A stretch of DNA of 64,000 bases from Catajapyx aquilonaris (GCA_000934665.2 KZ538868.1:62001-126000), one strand, 5' to 3'; positions 38,255-64,000 are shown, counted from the first letter of the stretch. Translations and numbers: made by a program. Notes: a model not told the origin generated them from the letters alone.

Positions 38255-41557
<3,303 letters not shown>

Positions 41558-43996: not shown

Positions 43997-46900
43997 ATGG
44001 TCACTTCGCCAGCTCCCGAAAATGCAGGCAGAACACCGAAACACAGGGCAGGAGCTGCTGCTTGTGTGGCAGCCTCATTTTTACAGAGTCCTGTATCAAG
44101 AACTTCCAATACAATTGTGTCCACTCCACATACATCACATCTTCTCTCACATGGATCGCCATTCTTGGATTCAACCTTGATTTCGGAAGCTGATTTTGCA
44201 GCGACTCTTCATTCAGCAAAAGAAAAACGCAGCTCCAGAAGATTGACAGCACTTGGTGTTTCCATGCAGCAGTCAGTGGTGAAGGCAGCAGTGGAGAAAG
44301 TCAGTGACACTGCAGGTGCAGGACTGAGTAAATCTCCCAATGCTGCAAAAGGCAAACCTCCAGCTGCTCTGGGAAATCTTTTGAGAGGTAAGTGTAGGCT
44401 GCATGGAAGGTTTTGGGTCTTGACAACCAGTTTTATCAAAGTTCATTGCATAGGCCTACACAGTCATGCCACAATTTTACAGAACTGTGAGGAACAGTGA
44501 AACCTGACCCTATCAACAGAGGTCAACAGTTCTTTGATCTCTGCTTGCCTGTTGCCAGATTGGAAACTTCCCCCTTCTTTTTGTACAGTACTTGTTTCAG
44601 CTACTGTCTTTATGCACATTTTCAGAGTCAATAGTTCAAGTGCTGTTGTTATCCATAGCATCAGCTCAGGGTGTGATAGAAAATTATGATGATTTTGTTT
44701 CATTTAGAATATTTGCTATGCACATGCAGGGGAAAAATTCAGGAGCTATCTCTATATCTATAAATAAGGAAGTTTGGATGTTTGTCCCTTATAGAAATCC
44801 ATGGGAAGGCCCTTACACCGCCTTAAATTAGCATATCGGGGGTTACTTTTTCCAAGGAATCTAACGCTGCATGTTTCAGCTTCCGAAAATGTACCTAACT
44901 CCCACAACACGCATATTCCTGCCTCAAGCTTACATCAATCACAATAAATCAATTTGCATTCCCATGGAAATGCCTCTCTTTTTTTAAACTATTTACCTCC
45001 CTGCATCGTACCGCAGGGAGGGAACCTTTATTTCGTCTTGATGGAACCTTTTTGACGTAGCGCCCGGGCCCATGGGCAGGGTGACTGGGAGGGGATGTGC
45101 AAGGTGCAAGTGCAATTCTCAAACGGTATATTTTGTGAACTCCCCGGGTGGATTAGTCTGATGAGATTCCACCCGAAACGAAGCCAGAGACGACCCAACT
45201 CTGCACGGGATGAAGGGGGGAACCCCGGGCTGATGGGATCGAACCCGACGTTTCCGCAGCGCCACTTTATATTACTCCGTGTTGAAAACAAAATTTCCCA
45301 TCATACATCTGTACGTACATTTCTAAAGTTATCCAGAGCAAACATATGGAACGAGGTGGGGGTGTGAAGTGGGGTTGGGGGGGAGGGGAGGTCAAGGGGT
45401 CAAAAATGCAGGGAAAAAAACACATGGCTGTGCAGTCTTTTCCTGGGCCAACTCCATCCACATTCCTCCTTTTACACATCCAATCAGAATATCCGTGTCG
45501 ACAGTACGCTATAAGACAAGCAGGTAATCTATCACAGATATGTACCCCTATCTTTACCAGCACCCCAACATACCCGGGCAACGCCGGGTAACCTGCTAGT
45601 CTAGTATATTTGCAATGTAAAAAAATAATTTAACTTCCATTATTATTTAACCTTTTCAGTTCTGTAAAATCCCAAATACTGCCAAATAAATTAAGACAGC
45701 TTTAGCAGTTGAGATCATTTTTATGGCACAATCGGAGAGGATTTTTCTATTCTGTGTGGAATTTTTTTGGTGTAGTATTGCCCATGCTGATTTTGTGCCA
45801 TAAAACCTCCATATCAATCAATCAGAAATTTATTCGGTGTGGTGTCCTAAACCTGTGGTATTGCAATGGCATTATATTTTAGCATTTGTATAGATATTGC
45901 AGTCAAACGACAAACTGCATAAGAAGGTATTATGCAACAGTAGGCATTAATGGTTCTGAAGAATATTTTACTAAAGTACTGTACCTTATGTGTCTCACTT
46001 TATCTCTGACTTGAATTTTAATTTCCAGGAGTTGTAGCACATGTTGATGTGCGAACAGAGAATCACAATAAGTCTGCGGCAGTGGAGAAGATGCTACTTG
46101 AGCTTGGTGCCAAAGTAGAAAGGAGGCTTAATTCTAAAGTGACACATGTTGTGTTCAAGGATGGCTCAAAGAAGCTCTATGACAATGCTAAGAGACAAAA
46201 CCTCCGTTTGGTGGCTGTCCGATGGATTGAAGCATGCAAAGAGAAGAGAAAAATGGTTAAAGAATCAGAATACCCACCAGTGTGTGCCCAGGAGTATGAT
46301 TCCCCACTCTTTCCTGATAAGCCTAAGGTGAGTTTCATATTCAATTTGCAGTGAAATTAGGCGGTAGTAGAGTAACTCTAGTCTGAGAAAATTTTGTAGT
46401 GATTAGGTTTCTGCTGCATGCATGTGGCATAAATGCCTTGAAAATCATCCAGAAAACTGGGACCTGGCAAATATCCTGAAACCAACCTTTCCACTGAATT
46501 CTGCTATTGTTATTGATATGTTTCATTGGATAGCACATTTTAAAGTGGTGGTCAATGCCAGGAATTGACTATTAAAAAATTGTTTCCCGTTTAAAACTTA
46601 GGGTTTCTGCCTTGTGATGTAATCTTTCTCTCCTTACAGAGAGTTAGGATTTTGAATGCAAGGGACTATGAAGATGAAATGCTTCACTTGAATCATCTAG
46701 TGGCCCTGCGACGTAAGCGAATGATGAAGGAAGAAGCACGAAAGAACAGGCACCAGCCAGTTGGCATCTCCTCCTTGGCAAATTGGAAAAATGGCCAGCT
46801 GGTAAGATCATGTTAGCCTCACGAAGCAAAAGGTTGTCATGCAGACACTTTTTATATCTACCTGGGGTCATATTGTCATTGTGATGTGCATTTTATAAGA

Positions 46901-49900
46901 TGAGTATGATTTATATCATTTGTAAGAAATGTATCAGTTCGGTTAATCCCAAACAAAACCTCTATGGACAAGGAGAAAAACTATTTCTACATGAGTAAAT
47001 AATATGACTTATCCAAGGATTGAACCTGGGACCTCAGTAGCCAGCCATGGTGAGAACTGCAAAGTTTTTCTGATTAGGAATGGTCCACTTGAACAATGAC
47101 ATCTCAGTCAATGACATCGTACTTTGTGCACACCAAGTCTCCTTGAAGGCTTTATAAAGGATGGGTACAAGCAACAACATATTATCAGTAATACTTGTGA
47201 TGACCAGTAAAAGAAACTGCTACAAAATAAGCAGCTTAGTTCCAGCAATAGCCATGTTAGTCAGACAAGTATTTTGGATCACTCTGTATGATGCATATAA
47301 ATAATCATTTGTATGTAGTTATAGATTTCAAACCTTCCATTTAAAATTTGGTGCTACCACATGATTGCTCAGTGAAGGAAGCCCAGTGGAGATTGTCATA
47401 ATCACAAGTTGACATCTTGTGTTGACATCTCCTGTCTAGATAAGGTGCAGAAATTATACTATTGGGCAGAGTTGATTTGGGAAATACTATAGTTATCTAC
47501 TGGTAAAGGTGGTTACATGAGTAATATTGTTATCTGCAGCCCACAGTGCAAGAGATCCTGAACATCTTCCCCCCAACAACACCTGAAGAATCAGTCAGGA
47601 GATTGCCAGGGTGGAAGCCCAATGACCCCTTTGATACACCATTTGCCAAGCGACTCCTGGCAATGTAAGTCATAATACGAATAATTTAGAGTAATAAGGA
47701 ATGTAATTCTAGAGCCTACTGAAATAATTGTTTTTTGTGCTTTATGTGGGTTTCCAACAACATGCAGTTCAAATATAACTGCATTACTCATACCAGTTTC
47801 GTCATAGGCTGTCATGAGTTCTTCATTGTGAATGCAAAATGTTTCCTTGAACTTAGAATTATGCCAGCTGGAATTGCTGCTGTACTTCCATTGCACTAGT
47901 ACTACTATACTAGTATAAGTATATAAGTAAAATCCCAGCTTAAGAAAATTTATTTTCCAGGAGGCCACGAACTCCTTCAGTAATTGCTGAAGTGACAGAG
48001 GATGACAGTGACATTGAGATCATTGAGGATGAGGGCAGCAAGCTTGAGCTATCAGGGATAGCCCCAGTGCCTGAGGACAAGGCAGATGGTGAGGTCAAAT
48101 CAAAGCAAGATAATGTTTCTGAAGCTATTGAAACTGTTGCTAGTGGAGGAGGTACAATTCCTGATTGTGGCAGCAATCAAAGAAAGCGGAAGCGAGTGGA
48201 TGATGGTGCTACTGCTCAGAAGAAGGTCAAGCTAGGAAGGAGGAAGCTTGTGTCCCTGTTCCAGTCAAAGCTGCTGGAATTTACACCTCCTGAGGAGACT
48301 TTTGACGTACCTGCTCCTGAGAATGGAGGTACAAAAGAGAATAAAGCAAAGGGAAAGAAGGAAGAGAAGCAAGTTCAAAAAGCAGAGGAAGTGCAGGTTG
48401 AGAAGAAAAAAGTTGTTCTTCAGGAGGTTAACCCGAAGCAGAGACGGAGCTCAGAAGACTTTATTCAGCCAAAGAGAAAGAATTACAATAGACGCAAGAC
48501 TGATGATCCAAGTGCACTGCGGTCTCTCTTTAAGTCCACAAAGTCATCCGTGGTCTGCACTAGTGTGACTAATAAGTAAGTTGTGCTTCACTGTGAGTAG
48601 AATGTCAGGGTGGGAATTGTGTGCGAGACAGAATAGGGTTTCTCTTATCTGCTCACTTCCTAGACCCAAGCTGCTCCAAACCCATGTGCTTATGCCACAT
48701 TCAGCTCAGGTCCTTTTTCTGATGTTCATCACAATGTGACCTGTACTGAATGAAGCTTTTGATACTGAGGTAGAGCTGACATTACTGAAATAACTACTTC
48801 ACAGTCAGAATGAGGCTGTTCGGGCTGTGATCAAGGCTCTTGGAGGATTCATGCTGAGAAACACATGTGACATAACTACAACTCACATAGTCACTGGGGT
48901 GGCCACACGACGCACACTTAACATGCTGCGAGGACTGGCACGAGGATGCTGGATAGTGAGCTTAGAATGGGTGAGTCTGGTTATTTTCTCTCTTGCTATT
49001 TAAACTTGATTGAAGGGGGGGTTGTGCGAGCATAGGTAAGCAAATTAAGGGAAGTTACTGTTTACATTACTCAGTGATGATTTTTAAGAACTCGGGTGCA
49101 GTAGTTGGTAAGAGGAGCAAGGATAAAAGGCTCAGGATGACATGGATAGGCCAGGTAGGTGAGCGTCTTAAGCATAAGGGTATGATTAGGCTAAATCGTT
49201 GGTATGCATGTGCCAAGAGGACCATGGACAAGGGTGAGGCTAAGGTTTTTTTCTAAGATTGGTGTACATGTCGGAGTTATTTAAGGAGTGATTAATGTAC
49301 TGAAATTGTGTTTAGTGTTTGTATCATATTAAGTGCAATACTGTGGATGAGCAACAGTCGAGAGCAGAAAGCTCCCTATGCATGATTGTGCAGGGAATTT
49401 TTTATATTGTGGTAAATATGGTATTGGTTAATGTTGGAGTGCTTAATGTGACAGAATGTTGACCACATTTTATCCCCATACCAAGAGTAATGCATATCAC
49501 ATATGTAACTGATGGTATAAAACTTTTAAAAGTGTAACTACGAGGGCTGTAAATAAAATAGTGGCAACTATTTAATTACTTGGGACTGGAACTACATGGC
49601 AGCTTCAAACTTTCAGAGTGCGTCACCAGCATTGTGTCACACCCATCATTAGAGATGTGGAAGTCGAAGGTGCCATTGGCAGCCCTGATTTGGTTGTTGT
49701 TTCGTATAGAGCGGTCTAAAGTGTGAAGGATAGTCATACCCAGATGTTTCTTGAGAATGTTCAGGATAGTCATATCAACAAGCCTGCCTCACTGGCTAAC
49801 TCATTAACTGTCGACCTCCGATCATTCTCCATCAATGCGGAAGCAGCAGCCATTTGTTCCTCACTTGCATTTGGATGGGGCTCATATGTCATGTTTTGCC

Positions 49901-51289
49901 TTCCCTGACGGCCCACCTTGCAACTGTTCTATACGACAATGTTCCCCACAAGCCTGTAAAGGCCCTTTATGACAAATTTTCAATTTTTAAACAGCACCTC
50001 TGCTCAAATTTGGAAAGCATCATCTTTAGACTGGTTGATGGCAACAGCTCACGTTATACTTTTTACTGCGCATGCGCATATTGAGATGGGACGATCTCAT
50101 TATGCCCTGAGGTTAGATCAAGACCCAACCTATCTGTGACATAAGCGGTGAAAACTTGCTACATTTCACTGATTTTCTAGAGATGTGTTAACACTATTTT
50201 ATTTACAGCCCTCGTATAAACCTTCATAGTGAATGAAAATTCAATAGACCATGAGATTCATTAGGTGCACTGAATGTATCGGTATTCACAATGCACATAA
50301 GCCTACATGGAAAGACATGTTCTCCTTAATTTGAATAGATGCAACCAGCCCTAGGCACATATGTGGGTGTTATAGTTCAGCTCTAAATGTTCTGATTTAA
50401 ATAATCTAGAGAGGTCCTAATTTTCAGGTGTACAAGTCTATGGAAGCAAGGAAGTGGTTGGATGAGGAACCATTTGAAGCACTTGAGTTCTCTCCAGCTG
50501 TGAGGGTGAGAGAAAATATACTTGAACTTTTAAAAATCATTACGAATGTCAAGGAGAGGAAATTGACGTGTGATCGTAGATATTCATTCTAAAATTGAAG
50601 TGTTAACCCATTCACTTCAAGGGTTTTACTAATCTTTTACCAAGTTTTTGATTGCATGCCACATACTGCACACACTGATTGCATGTGCGACTGTGAGTCC
50701 CTCTCACGGCATAGGATATTTTCTTTGGCCTTCAGAACAATTGACCCTGAGGTCAAGGTCTATCAACTGACCAACTTTCAGCCAAATCCATGTGGCTCAA
50801 CTTTTTCCATAAGTAGTCCCCATGTCCTTCTTTGTGTGTAAATAATAATTTGACCTAAATGTGTAAAGGTATTCTTATTAAATATATTATTCTTGCACAC
50901 TTTGTGACATTTCTTCTTCATAATAAATTTTTCTCTGATTTTCTCAGGTGTGTAGACAAGCAAGGCAACAGCCCAACTTCAAGCCCAGCCTTTTTTCGAA
51001 TGTGGGTGCATTGCATGTGAGTAGAGGTAGCAGCCCACCTTCACGTGACTTGGAAGAGTTGGTTGAGTGGTGTGGAGGAAGTGTTAAGAGTGTACCTCGG
51101 GGTGTGGAGCTGGTGGTTGGAGGGCCTGCCTCACCTGTTTCTTCAGGCACAGAGGGAGTTCAGGGAAGTGCTAGGAGAAGAAATTTGCTTTGTGTCTCAG
51201 AGAAATGGGTTTTAGATTCAATCCATGAAAACACATTGCAACCATTGGAACAGTATTCTCTCAAAGTTGCATCACAAGGAGGGCCATGA
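43997..51289 (+). CDS. MCPH1: Microcephalin (BRIT1), three BRCT domains
   Basis: Exons 43997-44387, 46029-46327 (N-BRCT: GVVAHVDVRTENHNKS...KVTHVVFKDG...LVAVRWIEAC), 46640-(46712 or 46801), 47540-47664, 47961-48575, 48805-48970 (TTHIV...RRTLNMLRGLARGCWIVSLEW), 50428-50505 and 50948-51289 (LEELVEWCGGSV...VSEKWVLDSI). One internal junction is ambiguous. AATAAA at 51575-51580. Confidence 0.9.
44749..45599 (+). mobile_element. Non-autonomous Helitron in an MCPH1 intron
   Basis: Starts a|TCTCTATATCTATAAATAA. Ends with the hairpin CCCGG-GCAACG-CCGGG (45573-45588) followed 7 nt later by CTAG|t. Inserted between A and T with no TSD. Confidence 0.75.
49060..49290 (+). mobile_element. 3' fragment of an RTE-clade LINE
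   Basis: The translation VVGKRSKDKRLRMTWIGQVGERLK...NRWYACAKRTMDKGEAK resembles the recalled insect RTE ORF C-terminus (G.R.RGRPRRT..DQI...LK...RNRRACMKRLMDVSEA). Boundaries are approximate. Confidence 0.55.
49541..50214 (-). mobile_element. Internally deleted mariner transposon
   Basis: TA TSD and a perfect 23-bp TIR CGAGGGCTGTAAATAAAATAGTG. The minus strand from 50023 gives a frameshifted transposase N-terminus (MMLSKFEQRCCLKIE..LSYRTVARWA..MENDRRSTVNELASE..TILNILKKHLGM) fused directly to C-terminal remnants (DRSIR..HNAGD). The catalytic core is absent. Confidence 0.92.
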
Positions 51290-51977: not shown

Positions 51978-53313
51978 TACATAAGTCAATGCTGCTTAAA
52001 TCATTATGCTACTTTAAGACTTTGGTAAGTTATGTTGATGGAGCCATCTTGATCATGTCCCTCTGCATTAAGGAGAAAAACCTGAGACATTGAGCACCAT
52101 AATGCAACCATATAGAGCCATTTTCATGTCTATGTATCAGTTTTGTCAAGAGTGCTTTTAGGCAATTTTAAAGCTTCATTTTGAAGCTCACAGCCTCACG
52201 CTTTTTTTTCTTTCTTTTCATATGAAGCTTAACCTTGACCTTTCTGCAGATAGGTGTAGCTGTACATCCTACAACATAACTATGAGTTGAGCATATTCAA
52301 TTGGGTGCAGTGAAATTAAGATCAATGAGACTTTACTGTACCATTTGTGTGTAACACTCAGTTTTTATTTATACAACGGTCTCCTGAAGTTACAAGCTGA
52401 TACACAGTGACGCTGTTCACTGATCAATGCAGATTGTCAGCAAGGAAAGCACAAAGAAAAAGGGACACATTTGTCACTCTTCTTTGTTCGTGTGGTACTT
52501 ATTGGTAGCGAGTTTGTTTTCTGGTGCATTGTTAACAAAGAAAAAAAAAATGCTTCGAATAGTTTGTTTATGGTACTAAAGCGCAAGAGGAGGGAACAAG
52601 GATGGGTAGTCTTTTTGCAAAAATTGTGATTTTCAAGAGGAGCAAACAGCAATGAACCAACTGCCCAGCCTTTTTCTCAGTTGGGTCTCTACTTTTTGCC
52701 CGGCCCATTGTTTTTCAGTAAGTAGGGAAAGCGTACCAATAATTACTAATTGCCTGTTAACTGAGGTTCATATTTTTCACAGTTACTGGAAAGCTGTGCC
52801 AGACCTTTGCAGCTTGGTGAGCAAATGGACCATTGTCCCATCTCTTGCACAGATTGTTTGTTTTGTCGTTGTCGACCTCTTCAGACTTAACTAGGTACAG
52901 TACATCTCCCTTTATTATTGTTTTTTGGTTCTTTTTTATTATTTTTATTGTCTTTTAGGAGTGGGGAAGCAGGTTTCTTTTCCTTCCTATATTTTGTAGC
53001 TACAAAGAGTCAGTATTAAGTAATGTAAACTCGGGGTGTAGTTTTATTGGTTTTCTTGTGTGACTACCTAACCAGGTTGGTACACAAAAAAAGCTTTGTT
53101 AAGGTTCAAGTACATAGCAGGCTGATAGACACGTGGAATGAAAAAGTGTCGCTGCATAAGCAAAGGCAAACCAAAGCTCACAAAGATTCAGCGGGTACAA
53201 AAAAAACTGACTCTTATTCACTCCTCCATATTATCCCCCCATCCCCTTCCCCCCACCCCCCCTCCCCACCCCATTATTTTCTTTAGCCAGACAAAACCCA
53301 AAATGGGACATGT

Positions 53314-56300
53314 CTAGTAACTTTCGGTGGTCCTGGTCTCCTGCACCACCATCACGGATCCAGCCGGGGCAACAGTGCTGGTGACAAAAGAGCGGTGCTT
53401 GGCCCGGATGAGGGACAGGTTGCTCTCTGCACTTTCGGCCCTTTCTTCTGCCGCATCCAGTTCACGTTGGAAGCGTCGCACACGGGTCAGGCTCTGCTGA
53501 GACATGCCCTCCTGCAAGGACAGAAAGATAAATGAGTACGCTGGCAAGGACGGCCAACTCAATTTTACACCAGGTATTTAGCACTAGTTTTTTGTTAATT
53601 GCAAGTTCTGAAAAATTTGAGTCTCCCGCAGGGTATTGGTATCGGTATTATGGTTCATGATCCTACTTGTCAGCTCACTGCACTGACCTGCTCTTGCAGT
53701 TGGCGCTTATAGATGGACACCTTCTGCCCAGTCTTGTCCAATGCCTCTTGCAGCATGACAACATTTTTGTGATCGTCCTCAAACTGAATCTGCAGTTCCT
53801 TCACCACGCGCTCCTTCTTTCGCAGGATCTTGGTGGTCTCTGAGTGACGGCGCTTCTCCTCATCAAGCTCCATCTCCATGTCACGTACCTGGATAAGAGT
53901 AATTATGATACACATACAGTGTTGATGACAAGGGAGTGGGGAGAGTTTGGCAATAAATTAAGAATTTTGAAAGCTCAAGATCAGCTTCTTTTTACGAGAT
54001 TACTTTTGTAATGACATGAAGAATAACAGAACAAAATGATGTGTTTGTGTGAAAAGTTTGTGCGCATATTAGTAGCCTATAATTTTAAATGTGCATGATA
54101 GAAAGTGCAGTAATAATTGAAATGTTGCAGAATATAAGTTTTACTGTATAATCTGATTAGATATGATTTTCATAATGATCAGGTTGTATAGGTAAGGCTA
54201 CTACAGCTCAAGTGTCACCAAATGTACTGCAACAATCGATTTCATTTGTTAGCAACCTACCCTGGCTTCAAGCTTGCTGATGATGCGTCGTCCTCCGGCC
54301 AGTGCGTTAGCTTCGACTTCCTCAAGACGGATGGTGAGGTTCTTGACCTCAATTTCAAGGGACTTCTTGATGGACTCGATCTTCACAATGCGTTCCTGTT
54401 CCTCATGCAGAATCTCAACACTGCGCTTGAACTCGATGGACACCTTCTGGTAGCGCTCATCAACCAGCTTGAGCTCCTTGGACACTTCCTCGTAGTCAGA
54501 AGAGATGGTACCCAGCTCCTGCTCCAGCCTGCTCTTGGTTGAGGTCAGGTTCACATTCATGGTGGTCAGCTCATTGATGCGGGTGCTAGCCTCCTCCAGT
54601 GACAGTTCTGCCGCTCTCCTGCCTCGCAGGGCCTGCCACAATAAAGGGTAAGTTTCCAAATGCTATGCTTCAAGTTCATGCCAAAAACCTTATCAACATG
54701 TTATGAGAATTTGTGTGCAGGGAGAACAAAACTGGCTCAAGCAGTATGTTACATCACCTGACTCAGGCAATTGTATACTCCATTGTTGATTATTATCTCA
54801 GGCAGGGGAAAATTGCTACTCCTGGTCACAGCACGTAATGTCCTCAAGTGTATGAAAGTGCACTAATAAATTTTGACAAGTCGTAGAGGCTGGAAAGTCA
54901 GAGATGGGCCACTTGAAGAATGAGTTGTTGTCAGATATGTCAGGTCAGATACTGAAGGTACACTTGCATGATTTAAGTCTTCAAGTGGCACATCTGGCGG
55001 AGGAGGATATGTGTGCGGCTCTGACTCACCGCATCCATGTTCCCGCGGACTTCCTCCATTTCGGCAGTAAGAGACTGGAGACGCCTCTGGGCCGCACCAT
55101 ACTGGTCCAGTGTCACCTGGAGCTGGCGTTGGATTTCATCATAATGACCCTGCAACTCCTGAAAAATGCAGAATGGTATGCCATTGAGTCACTTGGTCTT
55201 GACTTGGTCATAATGACTGTGTCCTAAAATATCCAAGGTGAGACTGAAATGGGGATGCGGTATTGTGGAAGTGTGTGTGTGTCATCTTTGCAAACTTCCA
55301 AGAATTGAAAACAAAGTACCGTAAGTTGGAGCGACTGCCTCTTGACGGTCTTCTGGAGTTCAATGTTGTTCTTGTTGGCCACATCCAGTGACATTTCAAG
55401 CTCAGTGATGGTGATGGTCATCTTCTTCTTGATGCGAGTCACCTCAGTCTTCAGGCGGGTCTCAGCCTCAACCAGGCGGCTATTCAGCTGCTCGATCTCG
55501 ATGCTCATCTGCTTGCTGTCAGAGAAACGTGAAAGAGACAGTCAAGTACAGTTCGAATCAAAAGTTTCACAGAGAGGCACCATTGCTCCTCCCACGGGTT
55601 GAATGGTGGAGGTGTGATGATAGTGACATGTGGTTCAGTATCCTCTTCCACATAGCGTTCGGCCATTAACTTCTTGTGTTCCTTAGAGTTGTGCACTGTC
55701 ACTGTCTTAGAGCGTCGGTATGCACCAATATCTATGCCAGTGTTGGGTGATGCATTTGTCAACATCTGTGCCATCAAGTCAGCACCAACATCACCTGCAT
55801 TGGTGATGGCCAATGACTTGATCAACGTATGTGACATCTTGACACACTTGAAACCTTGGGTGAGGAGTCTTCTGCTAACTGAACCTTACTGCTCCCGCGT
55901 TGCGAGCGACTGACTCTTGCAGCCTTGAAGGGCATAAATCCGCCCTCTGTCTGGCAAGGGACTTAATATAGGCCAGGAGGAACATCATCTGGCAAGGGAG
56001 CTATTTTTGAATGCCAGCGCACACTTCCTCTGGCAGGTTCTTGTGGGGGTGGAATTAAGAGCCCTAAAGACTCGCTTCTTCATCCCAAAACTCAGTGACC
56101 CACACCATTCCTTGCAATGGAGCCAAAACCTCTCTTATGTCACAATGTGTGCATTTTTCTATATACCAGTCTTTTTAAACTATTGTTCTTACCTGCTTCT
56201 CAGATGTGAGTTTAATTATTTTACTGGAGTGAAACGTGACTGTAAAGGTCTACATTCTTCAAAATGTATTACTGTATCCAGGGTCAACATAGACAGTATT

Positions 56301-59300
56301 TTTGTACAGGAAGGTGCACTGCCCAAGTGCCTAGTTTAAAAGGGGGATATGAGAAGAAATTATGGACTGTTTACCACAACAGCCATTTTAAATAGATGCA
56401 ACAAGGGAATATGGCCCTGGGTTTTTTCTTCCAAGAGGTTGCATCTTTTTTAACAGTTTGCTGCTGTAAACAATTCATATCTATTTTCCTTACTTGATTT
56501 TGAACTGTGGGACTGAGGCATTGCATCAGTGTAACTTTGTTGCAATATATGTAGTTAATAATAAATATTGGACTGTAAATGAGGTACTTACCGAAGAGCC
56601 TCAACCTCTTCCTCCTTTTCTGTAAGGCGGCGTTCCATGTCATGGCGGTACTGAGCCATCTCAGCAGACATGCGTTGGGCGCGTTGCTCCTCTGCCTTGC
56701 GTCCCTGTTTTTGCAGAAAGGCATAGGTAACTTAATAAATATTCTAACTAGCAGAGTTGTCTTTCTTAAGTAGAAGGAAAGCTACTGGAAATTTTATAAT
56801 AACAGAACATAATTATAATTATTTTTGTACCACAATTTTGCTGATTTCCCCTTTCATAGGGAAATGTCATAATGTGCAAGATATTCCCCTGACATCTGAC
56901 ATGATTTTAAAGGCTCCAGAATTACAAATGATGTAGGTATATGTTTGGCAACTTAATAGTAGTAGTAGTAGTTTGGCCTGTAGGACCTTCAAAAAGGTTG
57001 GGTCAGCCCTCTAAACTAACTTGAATTAATTACTATTTACGATGTTTTTTGTTAGAATGCACTTACAGCTTCAGCCTCACGGTAGGCAGCAGAGAGCTCG
57101 TCACGCTCATTTTCCAGGCGGCGGCACTCAATCTCCAGCTCATGGTACTTGCGGGTGTAGTCTGTCAGCTGGTTCTTGGTGTCGTGCAGGTCGTCTGTGA
57201 GCTTCTTGTTCTCCCTGGCCAGGGCATCCTTGTGCTCACGGGTCTTGTCCAGTTCGTGGGTAATCTGAGTGAGCATCTGGGTTTTGACGCGCAGTTCCTT
57301 TGTTGATGTTTCATAGAGAACAGTCAGCTCTTCCAGCTTGCTGCGCAGGTCGATAGTCAGCCTTTCCAGCTGCTCAGATCGCTTCTGCAGTTCCCTGGCC
57401 GTGTTGTTAGCCTTCTCCAGGTCGATGATGAGGACCTCCACCTCGCTCTGGAGGCGAGACTTCTGCTTTTCGAGGCCACCCACTTTGGCCATCAGGGCTG
57501 AGATGTGCTCTTCCTGTTCAGTGAGGCGGGCTTGGAACTTGCGGCGCATCTCCTCCAGCTCTTCATGGCGGGCATGGGCCTCAGCCTCATACTTGGTCCT
57601 CCAGGCCTGCACATCCCCAGTTGCCTTCATCAGCTGACGCTCCATGTCCAGGCGAGCCTCAGCCTCCTCCTCCAGCTGGACACGGACGGACTCCAGCTCC
57701 AGCTCCACCGTGTGCAGCTGACTCTCCAGGGTGCTGCGGCGCTGGAATATGACAACAGAAAATGAAATTGACATTGTCAAGCTTTTGCTGCAGCTAGTTT
57801 TCAAGTCATAAGGAGGGACTCCATGCCGCATGCTTAAAAAAAAGGGAAACTTGGTGTTGAGCTGGCAGAAGTAAGGAGTGTTTATCCAATTAGTCTATTG
57901 ATTCATTAGGTTACTGCAGAAATGAAATACTGATACGGTGCACTACCATTTTATGTTGGAACCACATGACAGACCATTTGTTGTCCCTTACATTTTTACT
58001 TGCTAGTTCATTAATTACTTGTGCCATTGTTGAATTTTTTGTGAATTTTTTTTTTTGCTAATTGAACACTACATTGGAGTTGTTTAAGACACTTGGAATG
58101 TAGTGTCCTGTAACATTTGTGTTGAGACCAGTAAGAAAATTGTTAACTTTTGCAGTAGTAATCGTCATAGTAGTAGTAATGCATAAGTGCAGGGCTCTAC
58201 TTACACGATCCTCATCCTCCAGGCGGCGCCTAGCTTCCTCCAACTGTGACACCACTTGAGACCTCTGGTAAGTAATGTGCTCAATGGATACCTTCAAATC
58301 CTGAACTTCCTTAACCAGCTCGATGTTTTCCTGTGGAAATCATGCCATGTTAGCAGACTGAGCAAGATTGGATACAGGCTTACTGGTAACTCACTTGGGA
58401 GATGCGGGCCTTGATATTGGTGATGTCAACAATGGTGCGGTTATACTCCTCAATCTTGATGTTCAGCTCATGAACATGGATCTCCAGTTTCTCAACCTGT
58501 TTCACTGCAACCACCTGAAAACATGTTGGAAATCAGTAAGATCAGCAGGAATCAAGCAGCTAGGTCAGGCTTACCTTCTCCTTGTTGATAATCTCAACCT
58601 GTGAGAGAAGCTCAAAGACTTCCTGCTGGAACTTGGTCTTTTCCTTCTCTGCCCTAAAATGAAAAGATTTTTAGCAAATTTTCCTTGTTTTCATTTACTT
58701 TAAAGAGCACTGATCCAGAACAAAGCTTTTGGGATTTTCAGTGTCTAATAAAGAGGGTTTGGCTTCTGATAAGCTTGACTTTGCTATGCTACGGTATTTT
58801 TTAAATTTATATATATATATATATATTGGTTAGACCTAGGGCATTCTCAGCCTTCATTTCCACTTGTTGAATGTATCAAGTGTTCACATTAGTGCATGTC
58901 AAGGAATTGGCCATACACTTTGTTATGAATCACACATGACCATTAAAAGGATCTAATACCGGTATCTCTATGAAAATGATTATGCATAATCGTGACTAAT
59001 CACTATCAGGGACACAATTCATAGGCATATGCAGTAGACGTAGATAAATACTTTTGGTAGTGTTCAGTTCACACATAATTACTGAATATAATCATATACT
59101 TGGATGGCCAAAAAAGATGTCTGATGTATGCATTCAATTGTGGAGCCTGGTTTCTTGAAAAATATTTAATTTTGTGAAGTGGTTTTTAAAGTTATGCTTC
59201 TTAATCACCATGCCAATATCTGTGCTGCTGCTTGTGTTAAATTGCTACCTAAATGAAGAGCTGTTTCTTTGATTCTTGTTCGTCTCATTATTTTGAACAG

Positions 59301-62300
59301 TCTGCTGACAGATAAATTTAATCTGAGCCTGTTAATGACAATTTTGAGTGCAATTGAATACATGTTGGTATGCAACATTGTAACACTGATATCTGTAAGA
59401 TAGACCCACCTGAAATGATAAGAAATTATTTGATCCCTTCAATGTTCTGTTGTTATTATTATATATCTAGAATTTGGAGGATGTACACAAGATTTAACAT
59501 AATGTAGCATAGGATTATGATTTTGACACCGGTAAGAATCCATTGGTTGGTTCAAATAAAAATGCAGTAAAATTCAGTCAGGTTTCACTATGCTAGTATT
59601 CATTTTCAGGGATGTGTTTAGAATTTATATTTAGAAAGAATATCTGATGGTTGTCGAGTTTCAATTTAATAAAGAAGAAATTAGCAAAATAAACAGCAAG
59701 CCATTTTCAAAATGTGCAACCAGAAGGAGCCGTATCTGACATGTGTGAACACCATGGGAACAGTGATTCAGAATAGAAACTATCAACATTTTAAGCAGAA
59801 TTTTAAGTAGTAATTTGCGACTGATTATATTTTGTCATTATATTCTGCACATAGGATCTGAGACTCCTTGCAAGTAAAATGTACCTGGTAAATGTGAAAA
59901 TCCTTTACTTATAATTTGTGCAACAGTAATTTCCTCTAAGAACGGAGCAGTTAAATTTTGTAATGACTGCTAACAATGGTGCATGAGTAGTGTGAAGTTG
60001 TATGTGCAGGAGTGTGAAACACTGACTTCATGCACTTACAACTCCATTCCATGTACAGTGTTGGACATTAATTATTGCATCATACTGCAAGCAACATTTT
60101 TCCGAAGCGGCAGAAGAACGAATTGAAGGAATGGATAGTGCAAGCCATGCGAGCATGATTCATTCTTCTGCCACTTCGGAAAATGTCGCTAGCAGTATGA
60201 TGCGATTAATGTCCAACACTGTACCATGCATTAGTGCTTGTGAATTACCCACAGTTGACACAGAATTTTGTCAACATATGTGATGAAAGTGCAGCAGTTG
60301 AAGTGTAGACATTTTTAGATCAAGAATAGCTTGGTCTATACAAACATTATGCAATGATTGCATAGCATGCCCATTGACTGAATTTTAATACATAATTTCA
60401 GAAATATAATAATCCACTTTGCAATATATTGCAATCTGAGAAGTGAGTAAGGTTTTCAACGTCAATTTTGTCCATGCACTTGTATGGATGGAAAGGTTGG
60501 GACATTGGAGTGGAGAGAAGGAAAGGAGAGAAGCAGAGTAAACCAGTGCTGCTAAGGTAGTAGACATCCAACAGAAGTCTAAAAATACATGGAGGTTCCA
60601 TAGCAAAAAGGGCAGTTGGCCAGGAGGATGGGAGCCCCGCTAAGCGAATACAGTATCTTGTGTCATTACCACCACATAGCTGCCAGGAGCAAGTCGCAAG
60701 GAAAGACATGAGCATTTACCCCTTTATTTTGAAAGAAACTGCAAAAGTGACTAGTCCAGATGCTGCAGGGAAAATAGATGCAGCAATAAACTTCTCCTCT
60801 ATTGACCTGCTACAACTGGCCAACTGCTACTGCAATAAACATTCTCTGCTCTGTGTTTTGCTATGTTGCAATGTCTTCTTGTTGAATGAATGCTTACCTA
60901 GATTTTACGCTCTACTTGGGCTGTATCCAAGCCGTACTTGGACTGTTACGTACTTGCTGAGTAATTTTCATAGTGTCATAGAAGTGTATACCCAAAGAAA
61001 AGAGTTAGGGACATGGAAAACTCACTTGGACTTGATCTTTGCCAGCTGATCAATCTGTTCCTGGAAGTCTGCGACAGCCTCCTGGTGCTTCCTGCGCAGG
61101 ATGTGCACAGTTTCTTCTGACTCCATGTGGACATCTTCAAGCAACTTGCGCAGCTTGGCCAGCTCAGCATCACGCTTCCTGTTGATCTCCAGCTGCAACA
61201 AGGTAAGATAATTATTTTTATTTTTTGCAACAAGGAGAATTTAGAATTTCTACTACATTATGGACTATACAAGCAGTCAAAATTGCAAATGCTAATTGGT
61301 AAAGTAGAGTTGAATGAAAGCCACTGACCTGGCCTTCAACACCACCTTCAGCTTCTTCCAATCTCTCAGATAACTGGAGTACCTGAACACTGTAGTCAGC
61401 CTTTTCTCGTTCAATCTAAGGGGAGAAAGATATCATCTGTTGAGATACAGTTTAAAATGGACCATTAAATCATGCAATGTGCTGGAGGAAGTGGTAGGGA
61501 TTAAGAAAACAAATGTTGCCAGAACAACTTCCTCAAAATTTTGGCTTGTCAGTGCCTGAGCTGTGCTACCTCACTATCTTTTGGGCTGCGGTTCTCCTGG
61601 AACTTGCCAACTTCTATCTCACTCCATGTGCGTGAAGCAGACCATGACAGTTAGGGGGTGATATCTTTATAAATTCAGCACGTTCCCTGGTGTGTATGCT
61701 TTATGATCATGGTTTATCCATGACAGTTGAATAGCTTTTTTTTTTGAAATTCCTCATTGTCCATATGTAAATTATTGTGGTTGTTGACTCAGAGTGGACC
61801 ATAACAATCTTCAGAAGTTAAACTTTTTATGGTGGGAATGATAATGTGCAGTCAAGGAGGTGTGAAAAGCAGATGGTATTTTTATGACGTGGAAAGAAAA
61901 GAAGTTGGGAAGGCTAGGTTTTCTTTGGGAGGCCATTCTGCGGCTAGGAGAAGAATCTGGGTTTGAGAAACTGAACTTCTGGCTCGGAGGCTGCCTCAAA
62001 GCTTTAACCTCTTTTATGTACGTGTGTTCCTTGGTGTGGTGTGCGGAGTGGGTACAGAGTGTGTGGGAGGTGGGTGGTGTGGGTGGAGGCTCGCATTTCT
62101 GTGTGGATGCTCCTGCTTAGGGATGCCAGAAATAGGGAGCAGCCATGTAGCCAAAAGACAGCAGTACTGTCATCTCTTGCACTACTTCTTCTTTCCTTCC
62201 AAGCTGAGTTGAGTGCCAAAAGCAGGTCAACTTCTGCCATTTTACATGACCAGTTCTGCAATACTGTCATTGCATTTACCAGTTTTCTTGCATATTGATC

Positions 62301-62777
62301 ATGTTTAGGAAGACCAGGTTGACACGAATTATTGTCAGTGACAAAACAAAGGCAGATATTATTTTCCTATGACTTCTAACGATGCATTGCCTCTCTTGCA
62401 ATATTTTAGAGATCTGTTCCGGCTGCTGTTGCACACGGTTGCATTAAGAATTAACCATCTGCAATTATGGTTATAAATGATTCTTATATGAAAAGGCTAT
62501 GTGAGTACATTTGTTTTCATGATAAGAGTGAAACTATGATCTTAAAATTTTTATGCTTGGTATTGGGAATAACTGCACAAGAAATTGTCAAGTTGAAAAA
62601 GTCAGAATGTATAGCACAGTGCTTTCTCTGTGTGGCCTAAGAATGCAGAATATGTTGAGGATTTATAATTTATTATGTGAGGACAGGGTTAGATGTGGGT
62701 TGAATGAAGTGGGGCCTTACCCTCTGCCTCAGCTCTCTCTCGGCTTCAAGATCCTCCTGGAGCAGGCGGATCTTGTC
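53314..62777 (-). CDS. Prm: Paramyosin, long form (5' exon(s) not found within the window)
   Basis: Thirteen phase-consistent exons: 62777-62721 ([19 protein letters not shown]), 61415-61329, 61192-61026, 58653-58575, 58514-58395, 58330-58205, 57741-57067, 56704-56592, 55515-55320, 55158-55030, 54632-54261, 53888-53688, 53511-53314. Myosin-tail coiled coil ending [35 protein letters not shown]...TESY. Confidence 0.96.
55581..55837 (-). CDS. Putative alternative first coding exon of miniparamyosin (short paramyosin isoform)
   Basis: ATG in CAAG-ATG context at 55837, then 85 codons plus TG, ending at a phase-2 donor TG|GTGCCT (55580). A 65-nt intron leads to the phase-2 acceptor of the [11 protein letters not shown] exon at 55515. 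Confidence 0.65.
55950..56010 (-). promoter_or_regulatory. Putative intronic muscle promoter for miniparamyosin
   Basis: TATA-like TATATTAAG (55970-55962), E-box CATCTG (55986-55991), MEF2-like CTATTTTTGA (56001-56010), and a duplicated 12-mer TCTGGCAAGGGA (55950-55961, 55988-55999). Confidence 0.5.
60056..60221. mobile_element. Palindromic Tc1/mariner-type MITE in a paramyosin intron
   Basis: TA TSD, with termini CAGTGTTGGACATTAAT / ATTAATGTCCAACACTG. The arms pair over roughly 60 bp. Confidence 0.9.
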
Positions 62778-64000
62778 CTGGTGGGAACAAAACATGAGAA
62801 TTTATGCAATTAATTCAACTGCTTCATTGGTAAGCTGTTTTAGTCTAAATCATTCCTTTATCAGTGTAATATCTTTAAACATTGGCAGTGTACCTGTGCA
62901 AGTACAATAATGCTATCATGCCTTGTAATAGGACTCGAGCCCGCTATGGCAAGATCGGCATTATATTTTTCTTTTCAAGTTGACAGCATTTCCATAATTC
63001 ATTAAAGATTTCTGTCTCAGCAAATGTTAGAAGATGGGAAATGTATTGAAATGCGGATGTGCAGGTCTTGATTTCAATTTCATATGATTTCTTCAGTTCA
63101 TGTCATTGAGTTATGTGACAAGTGCAAGCTGTCCCTTTTTGATACGACAATGCTTAATTACAATGAGTTTGACAATAATTTTTAAACTTTATTTGTTGCA
63201 ATATTTATACCCTGCTGAAATAGCCTTACAGGCCATATTTTTTGCACACTTTAACTAACAATGTGAAAGTCTGACCAATCGGAACTGTCACTGATGACAT
63301 ACCTGAATTTTATTATCGCATTTTCTCACCTACAGTAGTTACGAATTCAGCTCCACTTTGCAGCAAATTTCGTACTAAATTGGCAATTAAACATTACCTT
63401 ACGATATACCTTCTGAATAAGGACACTAGTTTATTCATGGTTCAGGTTTATAAGGGCAACACACCTGGGTGCAGAGGCCGCATTTGGAGGCACTGTTAGT
63501 AGGGCAGTAAGAAAGCGCGATGATGTAACGAAGGCAGAACAGGCGTAAAAGTGAGCCTCGTATTTATAGTTTTGTGCCCGCCGTATATACGGCACCAGTG
63601 TCGTGGCAAATCGGCATTGGCTGCTTTTCTCAGAGCGAAGGACAAGTCCTCCCATTGCTCTCCAGTTCTCCAGGCTAAGGAACGCACCCCAATGTCGACA
63701 TGCGCAACCCAATTCCAATCCTACATTATCCAATTAAAAATGAACAATACAGCTTGCACATCCATTGTTTTTGAAGTAATCACGCCTGCATCTATTCTTC
63801 CTTCCTTCCGTCCTGGCAGATATTCAGGGAAATGCTCGCTGAAGACTAAATTTAAAAACCCACTTCATACGCCAGGAATTTGTCCACCGTCAGCACTTCG
63901 AAGTGTGGTGGCTGTGGAGGCGCCTCGTGAGCCTTTTACTGCACACATTGGGCTCACTTCCAAAAAATTTCCGAGGCTCTGAACTTTGTTTCCCTATACA

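Follow-up and report, generated by a model that had tools for sequence, protein, structure and literature searches.

Miniparamyosin, the short form of paramyosin, has been known since 1992 and is annotated across insects. It is reportedly widely distributed in invertebrates, to judge by the title of a 1995 report by Maroto et al.; no sequence-level report from crustaceans was found in the literature searched, outside which subscription journals mostly lay. As given in excerpts of Becker et al. 1992 (PMC2289305), the Drosophila protein consists of 363 residues shared with paramyosin and 114 unique residues, two 5′ coding sequences being joined onto common 3′ exons. In Drosophila flight muscle, excerpts of a further study (PMC2120917) place miniparamyosin at the M line and at the filament ends. 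Here we analyzed a window of 64,000 nucleotides (nt) from Catajapyx aquilonaris (GCA_000934665.2 KZ538868.1:62001-126000), which carries a paramyosin gene on its minus strand. With a probability of roughly 85%, we consider this gene to encode the miniparamyosin of a non-pterygote pancrustacean, made from a transcript that begins within a 1076-nt intron of the gene. The sequence anatomy, an RNA splice junction, the homology of the isoform-specific N-terminal part (the head) to insect short forms, and a conserved gene layout carry this reading. What is new is the occurrence of the isoform, at the level of sequence, outside the winged insects and a head that is cut to one conserved block.

Anatomy of the head exon and the predicted isoform

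The paramyosin gene ends at a stop codon at 53316-53314, and its 5′ end lies beyond 62721. The exons and elements that concern the short isoform, in the order of transcription, are as follows.

56592..56704, minus strand: upstream paramyosin-only exon, ending ...EEVEALR; its donor is in competition for the 55515 acceptor (joint depth 331.7)
55963..55970, minus strand: TATA-like TATATTAA, a weak putative promoter element
55908..55913, minus strand: initiator-like TCAGTC, possible start at about 55911 (resemblance to an initiator, Inr; an RNA contig reaches 55910)
55838..55910, minus strand: 5′ leader of the miniparamyosin transcript (unbroken contig cover; stop-to-stop frame 55505..55885)
55581..55837, minus strand: miniparamyosin-specific coding exon, the head (open reading frame, RNA depth 22.6, insect-head homology)
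55516..55580, minus strand: intron of 65 nt, GTGCCT...GACAG, spliced out of the miniparamyosin transcript alone (RNA joint, CT..AC on the plus strand)
55320..55515, minus strand: first shared exon, beginning KQMSIEIEQ, in both isoforms (two RNA joints land there)
55030..55158, minus strand: shared exon (RNA joints with stated cut offsets; GT-AG sites)
54261..54632, minus strand: shared exon matching Myosin_tail_1 (Pfam, RNA joints, gene model)
53688..53888, minus strand: shared exon (RNA joints, gene model)
53314..53511, minus strand: last coding exon with the stop, ending ...QETRTTESY (reading frame, gene model)

The head exon lies within a paramyosin intron of 1076 nt, which separates the ...EEVEALR exon from the KQMSIEIEQ exon. 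Beginning with an ATG at 55837-55835, the head exon runs through 85 sense codons (MSHTLIK...NPWEEQ) followed by TG and ends at 55581. An earlier note, made from the sequence alone, had described an ATG-initiated open reading frame (ORF) of 86 codons at this place; the ORF is present, and consists of 85 full codons plus a split one. The donor GT at 55580-55579 and the acceptor AG at 55517-55516 bound an intron of 65 nt, and the C at 55515, where the shared exon starts, completes the TG of the head exon to a TGC Cys codon directly ahead of KQMSIEIEQ. The upstream paramyosin exon ends at 56592 with CG before GTAAGT and is in phase 2, as is the head-exon donor, such that the junction codon is CG+C (Arg) in the long form and TG+C (Cys) in the short isoform. 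The splice sites thus agree with the earlier reading that a phase 2 donor fits the downstream acceptor across 65 nt. RNA joints confirm two further very short introns of the paramyosin gene, at 58331-58394 (64 nt) and 58515-58574 (60 nt), and introns this short are therefore nothing unusual for the gene. The donor of the miniparamyosin exon, GTGCCT, is the weakest of the gene.

The leader (55910-55838) contains no other ATG, and an in-frame TAA at 55888-55886 stands 16 codons above the ATG at 55837, which is the first in the leader and has an A at -3. Across 55550-56150 the G+C fraction is exon-like at 0.46-0.51, versus 0.33-0.41 in the adjacent intron.

A gene model was assembled from RNA joints with stated cut offsets, all sites being GT-AG. 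In this model the coding sequence of the short isoform sums to 450 codons (257 + 196 + 129 + 372 + 201 + 195 nt), giving a predicted protein of 51.7 kDa with an isoelectric point of 6.0 that is composed of 85 head residues, the split Cys, and 364 residues common with paramyosin, in line with the earlier estimate of an isoform of about 450 residues with 364 shared. The five shared exons encode these 364 C-terminal residues, which match Myosin_tail_1. Over its C-terminal 364 residues the short isoform does not differ from the paramyosin long form encoded by this gene, whereas the N-terminal rod of the long form (456 reconstructed residues, 820 minus 364) is absent from the short isoform and a non-coiled-coil head stands in its place.

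RNA evidence for the splice junction

Transcripts were examined in the contigs of the single public run that was found to match (X1), which contains 80% of the words sampled from 55300-56200, and the contigs were placed on 52000-63000. Twelve joints were found across the gene; all read CT..AC on the plus strand (GT..AG on the minus strand) and trace the paramyosin exons. Because 12/12 joints behave in this way, X1 contains spliced RNA. The joint 55515->55581 skips 65 nt at a contig depth of 22.6, and the joint 55515->56592 skips 1076 nt at a contig depth of 331.7. The earlier note had named 55581->55515 as the junction to look for in RNA, and exactly this junction is present in the spliced contigs of X1, alongside 56592->55515. 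The contig that carries it is 359 nt long, of which 55581-55910 is colinear with the genome and the remaining 29 nt are shared exon; the short side is 29 nt at both joints, which is what the merging of two paths in an assembly graph should give. The depth of this contig is ~15-fold below that of the long form (22.6 vs 331.7, in one run, which is a poor measure of expression). Elsewhere in this intron, contig depth is 3.7 (55899-56159) and 8.9 (56348-56583), vs 22.6 on the head exon, and none of the 12 joints in X1 ties the head exon to an exon farther upstream.

Homology of the head to insect short forms

The head had at first been taken as unfamiliar and perhaps lineage-specific, which did not hold: residues 9-77 match the heads of insect short forms. 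Searching with a rod exon of paramyosin gave 282 proteins at E<=1e-20 among 8000 scored, with a top identity of 73%; the best 120 of the 282 were listed. Several over-long insect models found by this search carry an extra segment exactly between ...EEI.AIR and KQTSIEIEQ, and these models are fusions that read through the miniparamyosin exon. Against the head of the Gryllus bimaculatus 'Paramyosin, short form' (P0048), BLASTP gave E=8e-10 with 22/57 identical residues (39%), the matched Gryllus insert sitting exactly between ...EEIDAIR and KQTSIEIEQ. A second match, to the head exon of a termite-like contig (L001), had E=2e-12 with 26/69 identical (38%). When 55 insect heads were searched with phmmer, five of them (Gryllus, two Timema, Dryococelus, Periplaneta) scored 28.0-30.7 bits, and 0/300 shuffled head queries reached the real score, the best attaining 14.6 bits.

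A profile (A1) built from the window head and five insect segments matched 74 proteins among 7999 scored, in a search range of proteins of 507-2000 residues, outside which short-headed forms of ~450 residues fall. Every named match was an insect, most were called 'paramyosin, short form', and Drosophila MYSP2_DROME was matched at E=2.7e-36. With an insect-head profile dominated by Diptera and Lepidoptera, the head ORF was the best of the 3131 ORFs in the window, if only at a weak score. The link of homology runs via cricket, stick-insect, cockroach, and termite-like heads. The Catajapyx head, though short and divergent, is homologous to the C-terminal half of the heads found in insect 'paramyosin, short form'. 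Other searches with the head were null: it matched 0 families in Pfam, a word-index search of proteins of 150-2000 residues returned 49 candidates of which none scored, the ESM Atlas held no usable match, and a metagenome scan with the head alone gave 135 pattern matches of which none was confirmed.

As an observation on annotation, the fused insect 'paramyosin' models, of 916-1167 residues (P0048, P0072, P0091, P0113, P0014), constitute a systematically correctable error.

Conserved layout in Drosophila and polyneopterans

In Drosophila (MYSP2_DROME, P0170) the junction falls at the same point, directly before KQ(T/M)SIEIEQ, as the earlier note had it, and the shared part has 363 residues vs 364 in Catajapyx. 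Among the long forms with the anchor motif in the rod-exon search matches, the tail from KQ.SIEIEQ measures 363-370 residues in 66/71. The junction codon is Ser in Drosophila and Cys in Catajapyx, with Cys also in Gryllus. The heads differ in length, with 277 residues in Drosophila (the UniProt form) or 114 (the 1992 cDNA, as excerpted) and 86 in Catajapyx. P0170 is made of a 277-residue head and a 363-residue tail, and the last 114 head residues begin at Met164. The start Met of Catajapyx aligns with this fly Met164, just before the central block of the head, and the Catajapyx isoform therefore corresponds to the short-headed version of the fly.

Polyneopteran heads (Gryllus bimaculatus P0048, Timema P0125/P0127, Periplaneta P0139, Dryococelus P0136, and L001) have the central block with 33-40% identity to residues 9-77; unlike the Catajapyx head, they are ~240 residues or longer, encoded in one exon, and have an N-terminal domain and a last block as well. 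When metagenome contigs were scanned for a pattern made from four insect head segments, 9 loci came up, every one of them insect-like. The entire L001 head is encoded by a single exon at 757-1499 (ATG at 757, 247 coding codons), ending with AG before GT at 1499/1500; a 603-nt intron follows, with acceptor CAG and then C+AAG CAG ACC, reading Ser and KQTSIEIEQ in phase 2. The L001 head exon hence occupies the same intron, with the same phase and the same acceptor, as that of Catajapyx, and the two differ in the length of the intron between the head exon and the KQ exon (603 nt vs 65 nt). In L008 the order, as read from the sequence alone, is the same: the central block and the last block share a frame, and the KQTSIEIEQ exon comes next. 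The refuting outcome named in the earlier note, a lack of conservation of the ORF or donor in the orthologous intron, hence did not arise, though the comparison is with distant relatives only.

Conserved blocks of the insect heads and a possible longer isoform

Insect heads consist of an N-terminal domain (YEDNYG..FYQPMIDY..PHLPW.ERGL), a central block (GKSAKAIE..LLA.SL.N.SS.T..DI..FQRR....HDS.EH..FME), and a last block ahead of the junction (PL..LK.EL.GF..K...Y). The Catajapyx head keeps the central block only, at residues ~9-68, with the GKSAK motif itself reading ITNAG, and its last 19 residues are Pro-rich in place of the insect last block. Drosophila has both the N-terminal YEDNYG/PHLPW domain and the last block, and the Catajapyx head neither. 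In the alignment used (A2), the first 6 and last 17 head residues are scattered, and residues 7-68 alone are meaningfully aligned. All frames of the 64-kb window were searched for the insect N-terminal domain by tblastn, with a profile of the N-terminal half, and for motifs, and none showed a trace of it. A GKSAK string in a 19-codon frame at 56797-56853 was judged to be due to chance.

The missing domain raises the alternative that the real isoform is longer, starting in a further upstream exon with an insect-type N-terminal domain, whose splice to the leader falls after the TAA at 55886 and ahead of the ATG; the 450-residue form would then be minor or truncated. Insect short-form heads measure 217-329 residues (n=47) vs 86 in Catajapyx, and all 5 insect heads whose N-terminal sequence was aligned carry the full or partial N-terminal domain; the fly has a 277-residue head as well as the 114-residue version, AG dinucleotides are present in 55885-55838, and a rare upstream splice could be among the variants that contigs drop. 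Set against this, over 55581-55910 the junction contig follows the genome without a break, through the in-frame stop and the leader, and none of the joints leads into the exon; the N-terminal domain is missing from every frame of the window; and L001 has its whole head in one exon, from which it follows that a split head is not the rule. We therefore regard a longer isoform as unlikely. The N-terminal domain may also not be a defining part of the protein, because it lies outside the 114-residue head of the first fly cDNA.

Given this pattern, the 86-residue head might be a minimal and possibly ancestral one, in which the ~60-residue GKSAKAIE...HDS.EH..FM block alone has been kept since before the winged insects, the YEDNYG/PHLPW domain having been added later or being optional and omissible in the fly by starting at Met164. 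We put this forward tentatively, as a scenario with clearly less than even odds.

Phylogenetic position of the paramyosin

The long form was reconstructed as 820 residues and is incomplete at the N-terminus, its 5′ end lying beyond the stretch covered by contigs. It is 66-74% identical to the 36 paramyosins with which it was compared. In a tree from a quick maximum-likelihood search, all the named winged insects are gathered in a starred (95) clade of 29 rows; the long form is not part of that clade and stands beside four sequences, with an ostracod and a centipede farther out. The best 120 of the 282 rod-exon search matches included no paramyosin of a close relative. The source of the paramyosin is accordingly treated here as a non-pterygote pancrustacean.

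Putative intronic promoter and proposed mechanism

Upstream of the leader lie the TATA-like TATATTAA at 55970-55963, an E-box CAGATG at 55991-55986, and a MEF2-like TCAAAAATAG at 56010-56001 that is one mismatch from the consensus. Of the motifs listed in the earlier note, the TATA-like element and the E-box were recovered as described, the MEF2-like site departs from its consensus, and the motifs are weak. The sequence TCAGTC at 55913-55908 is initiator-like, and the head-exon contig extends to 55910; together these give a hint of a possible transcription start at about 55911. We infer an independent intronic promoter for the short isoform.

In the proposed mechanism, this promoter would drive a transcript that starts within the 1076-nt intron. 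The first exon would provide a leader of ~74 nt and the 85-codon non-coiled-coil head, translated from the ATG at 55837, and the weak donor GTGCCT is joined over the 65-nt intron, without a change of phase, to the acceptor of full-length paramyosin. The predicted product would comprise the head, the split Cys, and the last 364 rod residues with their non-helical C-terminal end. By analogy with Drosophila, the shared rod would permit co-assembly into thick filaments with paramyosin and myosin, and the head may govern the position or the partners of the protein in the filament; the predicted 51.7-kDa protein would accordingly have a role in muscle thick filaments.

Weighing the evidence

A number of points weigh against the identification of this locus as a source of miniparamyosin. 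The RNA comes from a single run of one study, as contigs only and from a library of unrecorded kind; such contigs show neither transcription start, strand, nor level, and rare variants are dropped from them; and the junction contig reaches only 29 nt into the shared exon. The length of the head ORF, taken alone, is within chance expectation, since dinucleotide-preserving shuffles of the 1076-nt intron gave an ATG ORF of at least 85 codons in 185/2000 cases; it is the RNA junction and the head homology that place the head exon beyond chance. Among the promoter motifs, which are weak and not above chance, no exact match to the MEF2 consensus YTAWWWWTAR occurs in 55838-56200, the nearest lying at 56555-56564, and the TATA-like element is 52-59 nt upstream of the Inr-like site, farther than a typical TATA box, which makes its role uncertain.

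The remaining points concern the head and the protein. Two of the three parts of the insect head are absent, the score of the head ORF against the Diptera- and Lepidoptera-dominated profile is weak (8.3 bits, E=0.25), and a direct pairwise comparison with the Drosophila protein gave no similarity (E=7.4), which is why the head went unrecognized at first reading. An exhaustive phmmer search of 1.84 billion representatives returned no true relative of the head; the insect relatives were not seen there because ~29 bits is too low for significance in a library of this size, and short forms might hide within its paramyosin clusters. Two matches from that search, a bacterial secretin-like repeat protein and a low-complexity repeat protein, were rejected as spurious, their scores being summed over many repeats. 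The AlphaFold2 model of the head (12 aligned rows) is of low confidence, with a mean predicted local distance difference test score of 61.3 and a predicted template modeling score of 0.25, and contains short predicted helices at 14-29, 37-45, and 51-66. The isoform is known from sequence and RNA contigs.

Some of these points would fit splicing noise, in which 55581 is a cryptic donor on paramyosin pre-mRNA or on retained-intron transcripts and the ORF is fortuitous, with no separate promoter or protein. The frequency of equally long ORFs in the shuffled introns, the weak GTGCCT donor, the low-depth contigs elsewhere in the intron, and the reliance on one run are all compatible with such noise. 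It would, however, leave the homology of the head to annotated insect heads at the same place in the gene and in the same splice phase to coincidence, when 0/300 shuffles came near the real head score, and contig depth is higher on the head exon (22.6) than in the flanking intron (3.7 and 8.9). We hold noise of this kind to be very improbable. Slightly less probable still is that the transcript is real and yields no stable protein, having arisen as a by-product, non-coding or regulatory, of an enhancer or promoter in the intron. That the isoform is known at the level of sequence and RNA, and that the predicted fold of its head is of low confidence, would accord with a by-product, whereas the frame, the phase, and a ~60-residue block are conserved with insects, and the start codon is the first ATG in the leader and has A at -3. 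Excerpts of the fly work also mention a ~55-kD band, cross-reacting with paramyosin antibody, that 'may be miniparamyosin' (Becker et al. 1992, PMC2289305). A translated miniparamyosin thus remains the reading that we favor.

Other features of the paramyosin gene and its neighborhood

At the 5′ side, the paramyosin exon at the edge of the contig cover starts at or above 62721, and one more exon farther upstream is suggested by a loose contig end of 134 nt at 62779. At the 3′ side, RNA contigs continue for at least 1.3 kb past the paramyosin stop (52000-53313, minus strand) at depths of 1049-1823 vs 73-530 on the coding exons; this cover, which has a loose end at 53240, could be a long 3′ untranslated region with 3′ bias or a separate transcript. 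Within the 2372-nt intron 58654-61025, a short stretch at 60190-60224 has RNA cover (bin depth 15.3), with loose ends of 27 to 255 nt on either side and a 1-nt deletion at 60208, and may be a repeat common to other transcripts or an unrecognized alternative exon.

A multi-exon gene for a BRCT-domain protein lies at 46022-51289 on the plus strand, tail to tail with paramyosin, and one of its frames reads ...TTHIVTGVATRRTLNMLRGLARGCWIVSLEWV. A chimeric insect-like model of 1327 residues (P0192, with Pfam BRCT and Myosin_tail) has a similar BRCT stretch fused with pieces of paramyosin and miniparamyosin, which suggests that the BRCT-paramyosin neighborhood is conserved between the Catajapyx genome and an insect. 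An exon at 40941-41339 (minus strand) is presumably NUDT21/CPSF5-like (cleavage factor Im 25 kDa), a name assigned from its sequence.

Significance for the paramyosin family

For annotation, the locus adds a 450-residue isoform with a first exon 65 nt from the shared exon, which had no counterpart in the exhaustive search of protein representatives. Work on miniparamyosin comes almost entirely from Drosophila; a naturally short head from outside the winged insects narrows the conserved part to a ~60-residue block and so offers a target for mutagenesis and binding studies. If the head is indeed minimal, the core of its function, the targeting of miniparamyosin within thick filaments, would reside in this block, and the isoform would be older and more widespread in Pancrustacea than its insect-only annotation suggests. 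An arrangement of the paramyosin gene with two promoters, the intronic one putative at this locus, and with this same splice phase would also predate the pterygote radiation.

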